This document shows positions 3,941 to 10,167 of a stretch of 11,151 nucleotides of DNA, piece by piece. The stretch is taken from the sequence record PV654518. The stretch is one strand, 5' to 3'. Made by a program: the position numbers and the translations under genes. This DNA comes from Shigella phage vB_SHGBLB0004. How positions within the stretch are numbered: position 1 is the stretch's first letter; each line of letters begins with the position of its first letter. Below the pieces are notes generated by a model, which saw nothing but the letters and a program-made list of their open reading frames with translations, was not told the origin of the DNA and searched no databases.

Positions 3941-5092
3941 TCACTCACCAGAAGTTTTTTCTTCTTCAATGTAAAATACAACATAGTTTTCAGCAAGGTC
4001 ATTATAATAACCAGCATCCATCTTGTAATAGTTGTTAAAGAATTCAGCCTTAGCATTGTAATTAGTAGTAACACGGCGGTCTAAGTTGGCAACCCCTACC
4101 GCGTCACGGTCAAACATAACACCTAAAATCCCGCTTTTTTTAACAACGTTTCCAGAAGATGTTTTAACATCAATTGAAGAAACATCGCTAAAAGAGTAAG
4201 CTGTGCCAGAACCCTGCCAGTAAGGAACACTGTCATGAGTTGGCAAACTAACACGGTCAGGATTGTCAGTTACCGAAGCCATTAAAATTTCTGAAGCCTT
4301 AGCAAAATCAGAAAGCAAAACGACTTTACGCATATCCGCTGGAGTGAATCGCTGTTTTCCGCTAGTGTTAAATAACACGCTAATTTTGCTCATGCGGTCG
4401 GAAATCAAAGCAATTTGATAGGTAGCGAAGCGGATAAATTCATTGCTTGATAATGCGTTAGCTACTGTTAAAGGTGTTGATACAGTTGCGTTATACATTT
4501 TCAGCAAGTTAATAGCTCTAGGCGACTCGCCACCGCTGAGAGTTTCAGCCGTCATGTTATTAATAGTTCGCATGATTAGCGCGTCTAATTTAACAGTCAT
4601 GCTATTCTCAATGCTAGTGGTGATCATTGAAATAAACCCGTTTAACTGCTCTGCGCTACTGAATGACTCTTTAACTTGACGCTCTGTGAAACTCATAGGA
4701 ATTTCAAAGGTAGTCTTAGAGTTGAAAAATTTAGCTTCAACTTTTGGTTGATGGAACACATCTTGAGAGTAGCTTTCACCATCTTTCAAATTCCATGAGT
4801 CGTTTTCAGTCGCTTCTGGTAATTCAGTGCTAATCTTTTCCAAGATAGATCCGAATTCCCAAGCATCCATAACAACGGACGGAACACCGCCAGCATAGGC
4901 GCGGTTAACGAAAATTACCTTACCAATATGGTTAACCAGTTTACGGACGTAGTTATCTAACCCGTTATCACTATCTAAAATCAACTTACCCGTATCAACG
5001 ATATTAGATAAATCTTCATTAACAACAGCTTCTTCACCTAAAATTTCTTTGGTGACTGAGTTAATGATAGTGTGTAATTGAGTGACTTTCAT
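3941..5092 (-). CDS. Putative major capsid protein (383 aa)
   Basis: Size is typical of HK97-fold capsid proteins of small podoviruses. It has the strong RBS AAAGGAAA, highly-expressed-type codon usage (CGT/CGC, GGT, ATC, TTC, AAC) and a terminator hairpin downstream. It follows the connector and a small acidic protein. No direct motif evidence. Confidence 0.5.
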   Translation of the reverse strand: MKVTQLHTIINSVTKEILGEEAVVNEDLSNIVDTGKLILDSDNGLDNYVRKLVNHIGKVIFVNRAYAGGVPSVVMDAWEFGSILEKISTELPEATENDSWNLKDGESYSQDVFHQPKVEAKFFNSKTTFEIPMSFTERQVKESFSSAEQLNGFISMITTSIENSMTVKLDALIMRTINNMTAETLSGGESPRAINLLKMYNATVSTPLTVANALSSNEFIRFATYQIALISDRMSKISVLFNTSGKQRFTPADMRKVVLLSDFAKASEILMASVTDNPDRVSLPTHDSVPYWQGSGTAYSFSDVSSIDVKTSSGNVVKKSGILGVMFDRDAVGVANLDRRVTTNYNAKAEFFNNYYKMDAGYYNDLAENYVVFYIEEEKTSGE

Positions 5093-5105
5093 TTTGATTT
5101 TCCTT

Positions 5106-6955: not shown

Positions 6956-8041
6956 TTAAATTCTCTTACAATATTTCAAGTAGTTGTTAATTGCATCGCC
7001 TACGTTATTATCTTGATAAAATACTTTATCATTGACAAAAAACCATCTGATGCGCTCTTGTACTCGGTTTACTGGCTTGAATACGCTCCTATTATAAGTG
7101 GGTTTAACATTAGGCTCAAGGGAATAAACCAAATCATCATCATTTTTTAAAGGAGTTGTCTTTAGGTGTATGAATGTAAAGTATAGGTCTTTAACATTGA
7201 TAACTTCACATTGAAATAGTTGGTCGGCAAAATCAATGAAATAAGTTAGTAATATATCTTTAGGTTTATATTTAACTGGTAAATGGGGGTATAGAGCCAG
7301 CTCCCACGCCCCGCCAGTTATCATAGATAATTTAGGGTTGTTAAATGCGAAGTATTTATGCGACTCACTATCAATATTTGTTTCGGTTGCTGCACAATAT
7401 TCAACCGCTACTTTCAACGGTGAGTTACCGTACTTGTAAACGTCTATCGTTCCCTGAGCCATATTAGAAATATTGGTCAATCCCATCTCTTTAAAATACG
7501 GACAGAATTTATTTACAGTATTCCCCAACATGTAAATTTTAACGTTCTCCCGACGTCTAACAATGGTTGAAACTGTATTCATGAAAATGACAAACTCCTC
7601 ATTTAAGTATAAGGAGTTAGTGAGGAATTCATCAAACACAATTAAATCTATGTTAGGGTATGACGTTGATTTATTGTGTTCCATGTCTGATAACGCAAAA
7701 GCGTAGCAGAATAAATCAGATTCGTTATAAACTGGTTTTCCGTTATCATCATTATTACATAAATACCATTTTCCTGATATATAGTGAATGTTTGTGTATT
7801 CACCATTTGTTATTTTAGAAACCTCCCCCGCTTCCAGTAGCCCATTAAATAGAGTTGCTGCACGTCTGCCTGTTAAATCCTCTTTCCATCGTCTAACATA
7901 TCCCATCTGTTTTTTATTTTCATAAAACAATTTAACCCCCTTTTTAAGTAGGGCAAATGTTTTACCATTAGATCTCTCCCCGAAAATTACTGAATAAGTG
8001 CAATCTTTTTTATCTATCTTACTTGGATTGTAATATTTCAT
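6956..8041 (-). CDS. DNA encapsidation (packaging) ATPase, phi29 gp16-like
   Basis: 361 aa. Walker A GERSNGKT near the N-terminus, then YVRRWKEDL and a Walker B-like LIVFDEF, the same motif order and spacing as I recall for phi29 gp16 (YNPQK...GARGIGKS, YVRRYKPEL, IVFDEF). ATG overlaps the polymerase stop (ATGA). Confidence 0.93.
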   Translation of the reverse strand: MKYYNPSKIDKKDCTYSVIFGERSNGKTFALLKKGVKLFYENKKQMGYVRRWKEDLTGRRAATLFNGLLEAGEVSKITNGEYTNIHYISGKWYLCNNDDNGKPVYNESDLFCYAFALSDMEHNKSTSYPNIDLIVFDEFLTNSLYLNEEFVIFMNTVSTIVRRRENVKIYMLGNTVNKFCPYFKEMGLTNISNMAQGTIDVYKYGNSPLKVAVEYCAATETNIDSESHKYFAFNNPKLSMITGGAWELALYPHLPVKYKPKDILLTYFIDFADQLFQCEVINVKDLYFTFIHLKTTPLKNDDDLVYSLEPNVKPTYNRSVFKPVNRVQERIRWFFVNDKVFYQDNNVGDAINNYLKYCKRI

Positions 8042-10167
8042 AGCGTTATCGAATCTCCGTTAAATGAATAGCCGTCCGCCTGTTTCTGTAAGAACCATTT
8101 GTAATCTTCTGTCATACTCATATCAAAAGAAGCTGGCTCTAAGTGCATTCCTGATAACGTTGTGACGTTAGCAGATTCTCCTAGGTAGTCAGTAGATATA
8201 AATCTTTTCTCACCCTCTACGTTTGTGTGTGTCATTTTACCAGTTCTATCAGCGGGAATAAACAACCCATCATTGAAAAGTGCAAAAATTGCGTTTGGGT
8301 TGTCGCCTGCTTTTTCTTTCATATACTCAAGCCCATTTTGTTTACTCAACCCTGCTACTGTTATCTGATAGTTACCGTTAATTTCTACTAAGTACCGCTT
8401 GGATCCTAACGTTTTAAATCTTGTGTAAGTTCCCTCGAAATCCCAAACCCCTAGAGGGGCTTTCTCTCCTTTTATTGTTTCAGGGCACAACATTTTCTTA
8501 TCTATTTGTAAGTGCTCACACATAACATTAAGTTTTTCAGTTATACACTTATTATAGAACTCGAAAAACGGTAAGTGTTTTTCTATGTTTAAGAATTTAA
8601 CACTATCGGTATCTGCATAAATATAATCATCTTTTATGTTTAAAATAGCTTGCCATAAATTGCGCCTAGCGTAAGCAGTAACCCAAATTCCCCACGGATA
8701 ATATAAGGCTCTATTTCTACTTTTATTATATTTCTCTAATTTTTCCTCTATATTAGCTGGCTCACACTCCCATTCATCATTTATAAAGGTGTGTTCGTCT
8801 TTAACGGGGTCTGTTACACACATTCCATAGGTTGAATTTAACATTCCTTTGGATAACATGTAATCATCCTCTCTCCCTACAACTCCTTTTAATTCCGTCT
8901 TATCTTTATACATATCCAAAATTTCAAATATTATTGCTCTAGGCAAGTAACCTTTCCTGAATGCCTTAGCCATAGTGAACTCAACTGATTCCCAAGTGTA
9001 AACGTGTTCGGCAATCATCAAATCAATATCTGTCATGTATGTTATTAATTCATCCGCTTCAAATATTCTTCCGTTTGCGTTTATGAAATCTCCTTTCACT
9101 GAGCATTTATGGACGCTTAAATATGATTCAAACCCTAGTTTATTTTTTAAACCTTTAAAGTGGGCTTGAAACATGATGCAATTATCAACCATTAGTTTTT
9201 TAACTTCATCAACTGAGTTTAATTTAAATGATACAGGTGAGCCCATCGGGAAACGTTCGGCACACATTACAGTAGGGTAGCTTGAAGTTAAATCGAAGCT
9301 AGAAACGTTTTCATGCGTCACCCAAGTCATTTTTGGGTTGCTGTGTGTGAATCCCCCTTGAAACGTATTTTTACACTGTTTATAAGTTTCAACATCCATA
9401 GTCATTGATTTTATTAGTTCGCTAGCTCTCTGTTTAACTCCTTGGCTGGCTTTTCGTTCTGTTTCAGCCCCTCCCCATAGGAAAGCTTTTTTTATTCGTG
9501 TTCTAACTCTGCCTGTGTTAGTCATTTCTATTTTATGAATGCCTTTAGCGTGTTTAATTTCTTTTGCTATGTAATTTCTGACTACAATTATGTCATTTTC
9601 ACAATATCCCATTTCTTTTTCTGTTAATGGTGTTTTGTGGTGTCTAACTAATGAGTAGTCTAAATCACCCTCCATTTTCTTACACGCATATTCCCCTATT
9701 AAATTCCTAGCCATGTTAGCTAGTGATGAACCTGATAATTTCATTGAACATCTAAATTCAATTCCACAATCAGCAACAGCTTTTAATACGCTACCTCTAG
9801 CCATAGCAAAAACCGATTCCCAGTTAAACAGGTGTTTAATGAACTGGAATTCATAGCTTAAGTTATGAACATAAATGACAATTCGACGGTCTACGTGAAG
9901 CCCGTAAGTAACCTGTAATAAACTAGTTAGCTCTAAAAACTCATCCCAAGTTCTACCATAGTAAACAGGCTCGTTCATGCCAATACCGAATTGCCAGATA
10001 TACATATAAGCAACTTTCTCGCCCTGCTGATATTCACTAGTCGTTTCTATATCGAAAGCTGATTCTATGTTTAGATATTCAGTTTTCATCTTACCTTTTT
10101 GTGAAGTCACAATTTCAGGGTTTATCTCGTATAGTCTATCTGATGTTAACTCGGTGTAATGTTTCAT
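8038..10167 (-). CDS. Protein-primed family-B DNA polymerase, phi29 gp2-like
   Basis: 709 aa with the full ordered motif set: Exo I SAFDIETTS, Exo II YVHNLSYEFQFI, Exo III YCENDIIVV, motif A FDLTSSYPTVM (Dx2SLYP), motif B KGMLNSTYG (Kx3NSxYG), motif C YIYADTDSV (YxDTDS) and KxY SKRYLV. An internal ATG near 10089 (M27, preceded by AAAGG) is an alternative start that would place Exo I at the phi29-like distance from the N-terminus. Confidence 0.97.
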   Translation of the reverse strand: MKHYTELTSDRLYEINPEIVTSQKGKMKTEYLNIESAFDIETTSEYQQGEKVAYMYIWQFGIGMNEPVYYGRTWDEFLELTSLLQVTYGLHVDRRIVIYVHNLSYEFQFIKHLFNWESVFAMARGSVLKAVADCGIEFRCSMKLSGSSLANMARNLIGEYACKKMEGDLDYSLVRHHKTPLTEKEMGYCENDIIVVRNYIAKEIKHAKGIHKIEMTNTGRVRTRIKKAFLWGGAETERKASQGVKQRASELIKSMTMDVETYKQCKNTFQGGFTHSNPKMTWVTHENVSSFDLTSSYPTVMCAERFPMGSPVSFKLNSVDEVKKLMVDNCIMFQAHFKGLKNKLGFESYLSVHKCSVKGDFINANGRIFEADELITYMTDIDLMIAEHVYTWESVEFTMAKAFRKGYLPRAIIFEILDMYKDKTELKGVVGREDDYMLSKGMLNSTYGMCVTDPVKDEHTFINDEWECEPANIEEKLEKYNKSRNRALYYPWGIWVTAYARRNLWQAILNIKDDYIYADTDSVKFLNIEKHLPFFEFYNKCITEKLNVMCEHLQIDKKMLCPETIKGEKAPLGVWDFEGTYTRFKTLGSKRYLVEINGNYQITVAGLSKQNGLEYMKEKAGDNPNAIFALFNDGLFIPADRTGKMTHTNVEGEKRFISTDYLGESANVTTLSGMHLEPASFDMSMTEDYKWFLQKQADGYSFNGDSITL

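Follow-up and report, generated by a model that had tools for sequence, protein, structure and literature searches.

Expression-level tuning as the probable cause of codon avoidance by three genes, including the capsid gene, of an 11.2-kb protein-primed phage

Translational selection in phage structural genes was a subject of earlier work on T7 and T4. T4-type phages carry their own tRNA genes for ATA, AGA, and TTA. Lucks, Nelson, Kudla & Plotkin (2008, PMC2266997) described codon bias resulting from translational selection in 74 phages. The single-stranded-DNA-binding protein (SSB) of phi29 attains a copy number of about 700,000 per cell (PMC4974454), which places an SSB in the class of abundant proteins.

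The window analyzed here is the whole stretch of 11,151 bp and constitutes a complete linear genome with an AT-rich background (35.9 % GC). That it is complete and of the protein-primed type follows from the inverted terminal repeats, the 60 nt of which are 100 % complementary at both ends. The Eliava PYO97 cocktail contains this phage genome as well. A search for tRNA genes in the window yielded none, and no pRNA was detected in it. The identity of the major capsid protein (MCP) rests on the PF25622 match and thus holds without an argument from codon usage. The gene product o101 is a putative SSB, and o199 is a candidate terminal protein on account of its position adjoining the DNA polymerase (pol) gene; family searches with o199 gave no significant match, nor did profile family searches with o182. 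Residues 284-655 of o655 align with tail proteins of relatives, while residues 1-283 had no match in the phage collection searched. The start of o166 was moved to the ATG at codon 21, which has GGGGG upstream; the resulting 145-aa protein is also called in the relatives L123 and L124. Orthologues of o50 were found in 10 relatives, and its AF2 model (pLDDT 51.7) was unusable.

Table 1 Features of the window, with codon counts, codon adaptation index (CAI) z-scores and family matches
Feature	Position	Strand	Evidence and codon usage
Left inverted terminal repeat	1..60		TTGACA-type promoter-like site facing inward
o110, small ORF	126..458	+	Not codon-optimized; ATA 1/9, CTA 3/11, CAI z +0.7
o50, conserved 50-aa protein	472..624	+	Codon-optimized; ATA 0/2, AGR 0/2, Leu CTN 4/4
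o101, putative SSB of protein-primed replication	673..978	+	Most codon-optimized gene
Bidirectional intrinsic terminator	998..1018		Between convergent o101 and endolysin genes; 9-bp stem, 5 GC pairs, T-runs on both strands
CHAP-domain endolysin	1023..1478	-	PF05257 E 6.8e-8 and PHROG endolysin families; background usage, ATA 4/12, CAI z -0.9
o655, tail or receptor-binding protein	1475..3442	-	Late structural; ATA 24/60 (pol-like), AGR 5/18
o166, probable tail-knob component, revised to 145 aa	3444..3881	-	Weak phrog_2248 tail protein match; background usage
Intrinsic terminator/attenuator hairpin	3895..3920	-	Directly past the capsid gene stop; AAAACCGCC-loop-GGCGGTTTTTT, dG -13.4
MCP, 383 aa	3941..5092	-	PF25622 Phi29_MCP E 6.5e-65; phrog_2006; codon-optimized
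o182, candidate scaffold or head-associated protein	5106..5654	-	By position; background usage, ATA 3/9, CAI z -0.2
Portal/upper collar connector	5657..6763	-	PF05352 E 3.9e-17; intermediate usage, ATA 4/28, AGR 2/11, shuffle z +2.5
o64, holin-like small membrane protein	6760..6954	-	phrog_4898 holin E 5.8e-10
gp16-type DNA-packaging ATPase	6956..8041	-	PF05894 E 5.2e-21; de-optimized end of range, ATA 8/21, AGR 7/13, CAI z -2.3
Protein-primed family-B DNA polymerase (pol), 709 aa	8038..10167	-	PF03175 E 4.7e-19; phrog_1907 E 5.8e-76; rich in ATA, AGA, TTA and CTA
o199, candidate terminal protein	10170..10769	-	Position beside pol; de-optimized, ATA 10/17, AGR 7/10, CAI z -2.5
o80, small ORF	10773..11015	-
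Right inverted terminal repeat	11092..11151

An earlier note on this DNA described the pol gene as rich in AGA, ATA, and TTA/CTA, and this was borne out: ATA accounts for 24 of the 44 Ile codons, AGA (17) and AGG (3) for 20 of the 27 Arg codons, and TTA (31) and CTA (11) for most of the 53 Leu codons. The capsid gene was said to use CGT/CGC, ATC, and CTG/CTT while avoiding ATA and AGA. It does use CGT or CGC for 10 of 13 Arg codons, contains a single AGA/AGG codon (AGR; the one is AGA), and lacks ATA among its 24 Ile codons. Its share of ATC exceeds that in pol (p=0.019), but the main Ile codon is ATT (18 vs 6), and Leu is mostly encoded by TTA (14) and TTG (7) instead of CTT (2) or CTG (2), with no difference from pol (p=0.29). 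For o50 and o101, the same description was correct with regard to ATA, AGR, and Leu (pooled ATA 0/11, AGR 0/5, and CT[TCG] 9/10 Leu).

The genes differ significantly in codon usage. Between pol and MCP, Fisher tests gave p=1.8e-6 for ATA and p=1.1e-4 for AGR, and over all amino acids the summed chi2 was 88.7 (df 40, p=1.5e-5), a value that none of 2000 synonymous shuffles between pol and MCP attained. A genome-wide synonymous shuffle, in which all codons were scored and not just those picked in the earlier note, singled out four outlier genes: o101 (z +5.3), o50 (z +4.4), pol (z +4.3), and MCP (z +3.2). Taken together, ATA, AGR, and CTA make up 2 of the 90 Ile, Arg, and Leu codons in MCP, o50, and o101 vs 188 of 589 in the rest of the genome (p=1.7e-11). 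What sets pol and MCP apart is a small number of A-ending codons (ATA, AGA/AGG, CTA, GGA) together with A vs T at the third position of four-fold sites, at which MCP has T at 0.60 and A at 0.18; their GC3 values agree (0.33 vs 0.36). The two regimes proposed earlier are, despite the significant heterogeneity, better described as three optimized genes, with pol, o199, and the ATPase at the opposite end and the others in between. Neither do the codon classes form two modules, as the late neighbors o655, o166, and CHAP of the capsid gene are pol-like in usage.

The expected fraction of ATA was calculated as A/(A+T+C) at four-fold sites. In the 11 non-optimized genes, ATA makes up 84 of 226 Ile codons (0.372), the same as the 0.372 expected, and pol shows no excess over composition (0.44 expected, p=0.17). 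ATA is below expectation in MCP (0/24, with 0.225 expected; p=0.005) and in o50 and o101 (0/11, with 0.41 expected; p=0.004). The background is thus neutral and the capsid-class genes are the deviation.

CAI values were calculated with weights from E. coli ribosomal-protein and EF genes, a proxy that may not be the host's, and z-scores refer to the genome's own synonymous pool. MCP (CAI 0.434, z +6.3), o101 (z +5.3), and o50 (CAI 0.522, z +2.9) are the top three in adaptation to gammaproteobacterial ribosomal-protein codon usage, while pol has a CAI of 0.266 (z -3.8). Of the per-gene check that had been suggested, adaptation therefore differs between the genes and GC3 does not. The MCP preference for TTA is unlike that of E. 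coli (RSCU r=0.34), which makes low-GC hosts a better fit; its RSCU is closer to those of capsid genes of Proteus, Acinetobacter, and Vibrio phages (r=0.74-0.78). The host would be a low-GC gammaproteobacterium, probably Proteus.

The codon contrast tracks gene identity throughout the clade. In 77/77 related genomes, ATA takes a larger share of the Ile codons of pol than of those of MCP (2210/4126 vs 160/1612 when pooled), and the share in MCP is below the composition expectation in 85/86. MCP, o101, and o50 are biased in every relative and rank highest by CAI in all relatives that infect enteric hosts. The capsid gene avoids AGA/AGG in no more than 23/77 relatives, and a large gut-metagenome cluster shows the reverse, which would fit host-specific tRNA pools. 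ATA counts in pol vs MCP were 24/45 vs 0/26 in phi29 (p=9e-7; SSB 1/9), 32/52 vs 1/25 in Amedibacillus phage AD70P3, and 12/46 vs 0/24 in the unrelated Proteus phage PM85. Codons were compared position by position with those of two GC-richer sisters, L125 and L010. In the L125 comparison, conserved sites of pol had ATC/ATT corresponding to ATA at 14/28 and CGN to AGR at 11/20, whereas at the conserved Ile and Arg sites of MCP just ATC to ATT and CGC to CGT changes were observed, and never ATA.

Of the two explanations offered in the earlier note, expression-level tuning and a mosaic origin of the modules, it is the former that is supported, and we consider it very likely that the contrast is due to selection against minor-tRNA codons in MCP, o101, and o50. 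An AT-biased synonymous background would place ATA, AGA, and TTA/CTA in most genes, pol included, at the rate set by composition. The products of MCP, o101, and o50 would be needed in huge numbers, in the case of the putative SSB for the stoichiometric coating of displaced single strands, and purifying selection would act in these genes against ATA (tRNA-Ile2, lysidine anticodon), AGA/AGG (tRNA-Arg UCU/CCU), CTA, and GGA. AT drift may then be steered into the T-ending codons ATT, CGT, and GGT of major tRNAs, the sole route to fast translation for a phage without a tRNA gene of its own. Judged by function, the three genes are presumably the most highly expressed ones, with tRNA supply as the putative selective agent; the o50 protein is predicted to be abundant since its gene is codon-optimized. 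A GC hairpin with a T-run is located at the same position at the end of the capsid gene in 18/18 relatives examined, although its sequence is variable, which lends independent support to a separately dosed, abundant capsid message. Several observations count against expression-level tuning. The portal is partly optimized despite being needed at only 12 copies per virion, as in the phi29 connector, and o655 is structural yet not optimized. To these are added the TTA preference of MCP, which departs from E. coli usage, the patchy avoidance of AGA/AGG among relatives, and the excess of ATA, AGR, and CTA in pol, o199, and the ATPase described below.

A mosaic origin would mean that the blocks of pol and of the capsid gene, or the small ORFs on the plus strand, still carry un-ameliorated signatures of different donors; it is largely refuted and highly improbable. 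Recombination itself is real: the window is about 98 % identical to L123 except for blocks of 75-80 % at 800-1600, 5400-6000, and 10200-11000, and compared with L124 the pol region (7400-10200) is just 82-89 % identical and the capsid gene 98 %. Endolysin types vary among relatives, and the NJ trees of pol and MCP differ in their deep topology (distance correlation 0.60). However, the comparison of module phylogenies gave L010 as the closest relative of the window whether by pol, ATPase, portal, or MCP, with no discordance between pol and MCP in this respect. GC3 is equal in the latter two, as is their synonymous divergence from L123 (5 %), and the recombined pol allele of L124, with 247 synonymous differences, still has ATA 27/44 and AGR 25/29. 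An identical mosaic event would be needed in all 77 relatives and phi29, and the background usage of o655, o166, and o182 on either side of the capsid gene shows that the biased unit is one gene and no module. Strain recombination occurs but does not track the codon regimes. A purely mutational or architectural asymmetry (arising from strand, from position in relation to the replication ends, or from mutation coupled to transcription, without translational selection) is disfavored and likewise highly improbable. The four-fold AT skew does shift regionally, from near 0 to +0.2 for o80 to portal to -0.26 to -0.48 for o182 to CHAP, and there is a change in raw AT skew around position 5000. Yet o110, on the same strand and at the same promoter end as o50 and o101, is unbiased, so that strand is not the cause of their bias, and the capsid gene lacks ATA next to the ATA-containing same-strand neighbors o655 and o182. 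Reasoning from the skew, deamination of single strands during strand displacement would enrich T in the right half of the minus strand, which is contrary to the skew observed. The gene-specific pattern also persists in phi29, in which the pol and capsid genes occupy opposite strands.

Adaptive de-optimization, by which retained ATA, AGA, and CTA codons would throttle the translation of pol, o199, and the ATPase, is unlikely, albeit with some evidence in its favor. With 11 co-oriented, tightly packed or overlapping genes and few internal promoters, codon choice would be a main lever of stoichiometry. The three genes (CAI z -3.8 for pol, -2.5 for o199, and -2.3 for the ATPase) are richer in ATA, AGR, and CTA than the remaining background genes (55/124 vs 133/465, p=0.001), which is beyond what pure neutrality predicts, and, of the large genes, it is pol for which Shine-Dalgarno pairing is weakest (dG -2.4). 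In the large gut cluster, the ATA fraction of pol is 0.58 despite a GC3 of 0.50, and among 76 pol genes with a mean four-fold expectation of 0.37, ATA exceeds it in 65. Against this, ATA in pol of the window is not above composition and the non-optimized genes overall match it exactly; in a diverse subset of relatives pol is above expectation in just 13/23. Moreover, pol of the GC-richer sisters is nearly devoid of ATA and AGR (2/35 and 5/29 in L125; 6/31 and 2/34 in L010), which shows that rare codons are not conserved at the gene level.

Selection for expression level, the preferred explanation, would mean that a new phage displays a phenomenon already known, namely the ordinary selection signature of highly expressed phage genes. 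As in the phages studied by Lucks et al. (2008, PMC2266997), by randomization tests that likewise preserve the amino-acid sequence, head proteins favor host-preferred codons relative to non-structural genes, separably from GC3. The difference is that one structural and two small early genes are optimized here and the tail genes are not, and that host preference is judged by proxy. The closest cultured relatives infect Gram-negative hosts, unlike phi29. Those of Astrithrvirus and allies (Salmonella phages astrithr, Astrid, and assan, Pectobacterium DU_PP_III, Acinetobacter Phanie, Enterobacter Entb_47, and Vibrio K58 g2) have the same gene order and content, a low GC content (32-40 %), and MCP and pol proteins that are 62-73 % and 48-52 % identical, and ATA and AGR are avoided by MCP, o101, and o50 in all of them. 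They lack megablast-level nucleotide similarity to the window, the capsid gene of which uses TTA and not CTG for Leu, and the first 283 residues of its tail protein had no counterpart in the phage collection. With phi29 (Salasmaviridae; genes 2, 5, and 8) the phage shares a protein-primed PolB, a gp16 ATPase, a connector, and a Phi29-type MCP, as well as a near-identical codon contrast, which in phi29 includes AGR (pol 13/20, MCP 2/19). Its genome is smaller (11.2 vs 19.3 kb), its terminal repeats are longer (60 vs 6 bp), pol is encoded on the strand that also carries the late genes, and no pRNA was detected. The T4-type phages are comparable in that an AT-rich phage meets a host poor in ATA/AGA service, which sets mutational bias against tRNA supply; T4 brings tRNAs, whereas the 11-kb genome described here, without any, avoids the codons in its high-demand genes.

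The DNA polymerase gene and the capsid gene of vB_SHGBLB0004 differ significantly in their choice of synonymous codons. In the polymerase gene, 24 of the 44 Ile codons are ATA, 20 of the 27 Arg codons are AGA (17) or AGG (3), and Leu is encoded by TTA (31) and CTA (11) among 53 codons. The capsid gene contains no ATA among 24 Ile codons and only one AGA/AGG among 13 Arg codons, 10 of which are CGT or CGC. Two small open reading frames (ORFs) at 472-978, o50 and o101 (named by their length in amino acids), lack ATA (0/11) and AGA/AGG (0/5) as well, and nine of their ten Leu codons are CTT, CTC, or CTG. 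Fisher tests between the polymerase and capsid genes gave p = 1.8e-6 for ATA and p = 1.1e-4 for AGA/AGG, and the chi-square over all amino acids (88.7, df 40, p = 1.5e-5) was never attained when synonymous codons were shuffled 2000 times between the two genes. Because the codons in the earlier note had been picked post hoc, a genome-wide synonymous shuffle over all codons was run as well. The polymerase gene (z +4.3), o101 (+5.3), o50 (+4.4), and the capsid gene (+3.2) emerged as outliers; the portal gene was marginal (+2.5), and the nine other genes were indistinguishable from the pool.

The observation is therefore real and statistically significant, but it had been partly misdescribed. The preferences named for the polymerase gene, the avoidance of ATA and AGA in the capsid gene and the two small ORFs, and the use of CGT/CGC in the capsid gene are borne out. 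ATC was said to be the Ile codon of the capsid gene and CTG/CTT its Leu codons; the gene uses ATT (18) over ATC (6), and TTA (14) and TTG (7) over CTT (2) and CTG (2), with a share of CTT, CTC, and CTG that is indistinguishable from that in the polymerase gene (p = 0.29). GC3 is alike in both genes (0.33 vs. 0.36). The contrast resides in a few A-ending codons (ATA, AGA/AGG, CTA, GGA) and in the choice of A versus T at four-fold sites, where T and A amount to 0.60 and 0.18 in the capsid gene and to 0.42 and 0.31 in the polymerase gene. A general avoidance of the TA dinucleotide in the capsid gene was considered and rejected, as TTA (14/21 of TTR) and GTA (6/34) are used there to an extent similar to that in the polymerase gene.

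If ATA use were neutral, its share of Ile codons should equal A/(A+T+C) at four-fold sites, and the 11 genes other than the capsid gene, o50, and o101, when pooled, agree with this expectation (84/226 = 0.372 vs. 0.372 expected, p = 1.0). ATA falls short of expectation in the capsid gene (0/24 vs. 0.225, p = 0.005) and in o50 plus o101 (0/11 vs. 0.41, p = 0.004). As the background genes match composition, what looked like a polymerase regime is the compositional background of the genome, and the capsid regime is a departure from it. The codon adaptation index (CAI) was calculated relative to the ribosomal-protein and EF genes of E. coli, a proxy that may not be the host's own set. With these weights the capsid gene, o101, and o50 reach 0.434, 0.559, and 0.522, respectively, and all others 0.235-0.337. 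Relative to the synonymous pool of the genome, the same proxy weights give z values of +6.3, +5.3, and +2.9 for these three genes, -3.8 for the polymerase gene, -2.5 for o199, and -2.3 for the packaging ATPase gene; the remaining genes lie within ±1. The late genes around the capsid gene are not capsid-like in their ATA content (o655, 24/60; o166, 4/16; o182, 3/9; the CHAP endolysin gene, 4/12), and o110 is without bias despite lying on the same strand, and at the same promoter end, as o50 and o101. The biased unit is thus a single gene each time and not a block, so that of the two regimes proposed earlier the difference between genes stands and the module-wide extent does not.

Features of the phage genome and the basis of their naming
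Feature	Position	Strand	Basis or remark
Inverted terminal repeat, left	1-60		perfect, 60 bp
o110		+	small ORF, left end
o50	472-624	+	small ORF
o101, putative SSB	673-978	+	small ORF
CHAP endolysin	1023-1478	-	
o655, tail protein of 655 aa		-	
o166		-	
Intrinsic terminator hairpin	3895-3920	-	dG -13.4
Major capsid protein (MCP), 383 aa	3941-5092	-	PF25622 Phi29_MCP, E 6.5e-65, above gathering threshold; phrog_2006
o182		-	
Connector/portal	5657-6763	-	PF05352, above gathering threshold
o64, holin-like	6760-6954	-	phrog_4898, E 5.8e-10
gp16-type packaging ATPase	6956-8041	-	PF05894, above gathering threshold
Protein-primed family-B DNA polymerase	8038-10167	-	PF03175, above gathering threshold
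o199, candidate terminal protein		-	position alone
o80		-	
Inverted terminal repeat, right	11092-11151		perfect, 60 bp

The perfect terminal repeats identify the window as a complete linear genome. Each of them holds a TTGACA-type promoter-like site directed inward, from which both gene sets, 11 ORFs on the minus strand and three small ones on the plus strand at the left end, would start at repeat-proximal promoters. The GC content is 35.9 % overall and stays within 0.33-0.40 throughout, with no discontinuity at module borders. No tRNA genes were found in the window, and an Rfam scan of it for pRNA or other RNAs returned two sub-threshold chance hits only. Coding-strand AT skew at four-fold sites is about 0 to +0.2 from o80 to the portal gene (5650-11015) and -0.26 to -0.48 from o182 to the CHAP gene (1000-5650); single-strand deamination during strand-displacement replication was rejected as the cause of this regional shift, as it predicts the opposite sign. 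The holin-like o64 sits between the packaging ATPase and portal genes, distant from the endolysin gene. In tail proteins the anchor is usually conserved and the tip variable. The tail protein o655 shows the opposite: its C-terminal 370 residues are common to relatives, and residues 1-283 (window 2594-3442) are without a match in the phage collection (tblastn). A foreign N-terminal domain does not account for the ATA richness of its gene (7/14 in the N-terminal vs. 17/46 in the C-terminal part, p = 0.53). The endolysin slot is occupied by four enzyme types across relatives, namely, CHAP, Phage_lysozyme, amidase, and L-Ala-D-Glu peptidase (for instance at 1123-1611 of contig L125, 10350-10964 of L003, and 1242-1613 of L006). 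A CHAP endolysin is unusual with a Gram-negative host.

The codon contrast was followed through 80 related IMG/VR contigs, the cultured relatives, and three closer Logan assemblies obtained via o101 homologues. The ATA fraction is higher in the polymerase than in the capsid gene in all 77 genomes with both genes (pooled, 2210/4126 vs. 160/1612), and in 85 of 86 genomes the capsid gene has less ATA than its composition predicts. In every enteric-host relative, the orthologues of the capsid gene, o101, and o50 have the highest CAI, and ATA, AGA/AGG, and CTA are absent from them or nearly so. Avoidance of AGA/AGG is less universal: it is seen in 23 of 77 genomes, and a large cluster that stems from a single metagenome shows the reverse. 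Hosts with differing Arg tRNA pools would produce such patchiness. The cluster in question comprises 53 gut-type relatives (IMG sample 3300045988), in which the AGA/AGG fraction is 0.30 in the capsid gene and 0.14 in the polymerase gene. ATA makes up 58 % of the Ile codons of their polymerase genes at a GC3 of 0.50; the four-fold expectation for ATA averages 0.37 over all 76 polymerase genes. This pattern suggests either a host whose tRNA supply is different or selection that favours ATA.

Two GC-richer sister lineages (L010 and L125; 45.5 % GC, polymerase and MCP identities of 70-81 %) allow the effect to be seen codon by codon. Such a GC gap is unusually large for close relatives, and presumably a change of host lies behind it. 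The comparison was limited to Ile and Arg positions conserved between the window and L125. In the polymerase gene, 14 of 28 Ile sites are ATC or ATT in L125 and ATA in the window, and 11 of 20 Arg sites are CGN in L125 and AGA/AGG in the window. The capsid gene has changed only from ATC to ATT (six sites) and from CGC to CGT (three sites), never to ATA, and o101 behaves in the same way. The shift in GC3 is equal for both gene classes; in the optimised genes, the gain in AT went to T-ending codons.

A mosaic origin of the modules, each bringing along its own codon usage, had been offered as one of two explanations. Recombination does occur in this population. The window and the conspecific strain L123 are about 98 % identical except for blocks of 75-80 % identity at 800-1600, 5400-6000, and 10200-11000. 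A further conspecific, L124, has another allele throughout the polymerase region (7400-10200; 82-89 % identity), whereas its capsid gene is 98 % identical. The blocks are sharply bounded, and the three conspecific genomes come from different read sets. At the protein level o199 is 97 % identical, yet 42 % of the synonymous sites differ. The exchanged polymerase allele, with 94 % amino-acid identity to that of the window and 247 synonymous differences, has nevertheless kept its ATA (27/44) and AGA/AGG (25/29), from which it follows that mosaicism is real but is not the source of the codon contrast. Module phylogenies also agree on the closest relative: in neighbor-joining trees (without bootstrap values) of the polymerase, ATPase, portal, and MCP, contig L010 is the sister of the window in all four (identities of 72, 80, 55, and 81 %, respectively). 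Synonymous differences from L123 amount to 5 % in the polymerase and the capsid gene alike, and with equal GC3, continuous composition, and single biased genes amid background genes, the mosaic explanation is not supported. The bias goes with the gene and not with the lineage, as is seen in the 77 relatives, in phi29, in the Firmicute phage AD70P3, and in the recombinant polymerase allele.

The other explanation, expression-level tuning of a few high-demand genes, is supported by the CAI values of the three genes under the proxy weights and by the gene-specific pattern across relatives. The capsid assignment of the 383-aa gene, which the codon usage had been called upon to back, is right independently of it, given the profile matches. 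The capsid protein is the virion component of highest copy number. The o101 product has an OB-like fold resembling known phage SSBs; profile searches against PDB sequences, Pfam, and PHROGs gave nothing significant, with no homology to a characterised SSB, and we therefore consider it, with moderate confidence, a putative SSB of the protein-primed type, analogous to phi29 p5 and PRD1 P12. SSBs of protein-primed replication are required stoichiometrically. In phi29, about 700,000 molecules are present per cell (PMC4974454; see also PMC11886824). Conserved in ten relatives, o50 gave an unusable structure model (pLDDT 51.7, 5-sequence alignment), and all that its codon bias lets us predict is an abundant product. 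The stop codon of the capsid gene is followed immediately by the terminator hairpin, and each of the 18 relatives examined has a GC hairpin with a T-run in this position, though not of conserved sequence. This fits a capsid message that is dosed separately, with less optimised tail genes downstream. The hairpin also implies that o166 starts at ATG 3881 (145 aa, as in L123) and not at GTG 3944.

ATA is decoded solely by a lysidine-modified minor tRNA-Ile2, and minor tRNAs read AGA/AGG, CTA, and GGA in Enterobacterales. For an AT-biased phage without tRNA genes, barring such rare codons would be the only way to keep translation of its most heavily used messages rapid and accurate. The selection coefficient per site would grow with expression, so that selection would take hold in the capsid and SSB genes but not in the polymerase gene. 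A stronger version holds that codon choice is a designed dosage lever, in which ATA, AGA, and CTA are kept in the replication genes as a throttle by selection rather than drift and purged from the high-copy genes. With 11 co-oriented, overlapping genes and few promoters, the gap between capsid or SSB and polymerase or terminal protein (hundreds-fold or more) would then be set largely by elongation and reinforced by the conserved terminator. ATA, AGA/AGG, and CTA are indeed somewhat more frequent in the polymerase, o199, and ATPase genes (55/124) than in the remaining background genes (133/465; p = 0.001). However, a positive excess of ATA in the polymerase gene of the window was rejected (24/44 vs. 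0.44 expected, p = 0.17), so that no throttle is needed to explain it, and the GC-richer sisters have nearly lost codons of this type from the gene. We regard the dosage lever as very improbable.

The phage has the hallmarks of protein-primed, phi29-like podophages: a family-B polymerase, gp16 ATPase, connector, Phi29-type MCP, and a linear genome bounded by inverted terminal repeats. When the entire window was compared by megablast with 50,697 phage records, no match was obtained. By protein similarity, the closest cultured relatives are phi29-like phages of Gram-negative bacteria (MCP 62-73 %, polymerase 48-52 % identical). These relatives, namely, the Salmonella phages astrithr, Astrid, and assan, Pectobacterium phage DU_PP_III, Acinetobacter phage Phanie, Enterobacter phage Entb_47, and Vibrio phage K58 g2, have the same gene order. 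By the ICTV criterion of roughly 70 % or higher nucleotide identity to Astrithrvirus astrithr across the genome, the phage falls outside that genus: it has no megablast match, and its protein identities to astrithr are 24-69 %. Read set ERR2184199, which stems from the Eliava PYO97 pyophage cocktail (bioRxiv 10.1101/2024.09.12.612727), yields a contig that matches positions 31-8389 at 99.99 % identity; for this cocktail, single-contig bins of about 11 kb, unlike known phages, were reported in 2017 (PMC5707535). The RSCU of the capsid gene correlates with that of the capsid and scaffold genes of Proteus phage PM85 (0.77) and with Phanie (0.74) and K58 g2 (0.78), and only at r = 0.34 with E. coli ribosomal-protein genes, which hints at a low-GC gammaproteobacterial host. 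Among the declared hosts, Proteus is probably the top candidate. A scan of a genome collection with the capsid protein yielded 32 matches, all mis-binned MAG contigs of unrelated phyla and none close, and a tblastn search with residues 1-283 of the tail protein, made for a host clue, gave no match.

The codon phenomenon is well known and the general view of phage codon usage is unchanged; new is the instance, an undescribed Astrithrvirus-like phage from a therapeutic cocktail. It is a clean worked example, without tRNA genes and with an AT-rich background, in which rare codons are barred from a few high-demand genes and the rest drifts. The codon signal supports the capsid annotation and marks two unannotated small ORFs as encoding abundant proteins, one of which, the likely SSB, is of interest for protein-primed orthogonal replication systems in Gram-negative bacteria. 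The same contrast is present in phi29, with ATA 24/45 and AGA/AGG 13/20 in the polymerase gene against 0/26 and 2/19 in the MCP gene (p = 9e-7); its SSB gene 5 has ATA 1/9 and its scaffold gene 0/6. In AD70P3, ATA amounts to 32/52 in the polymerase and 1/25 in the MCP gene. The unrelated, SP6-like PM85 likewise has ATA 12/46 and AGA/AGG 15/61 in its DNA polymerase gene and 0/24 and 0/14 in its capsid gene, and Lucks et al. (PMC2266997) have described this pattern in a set of 74 phages.
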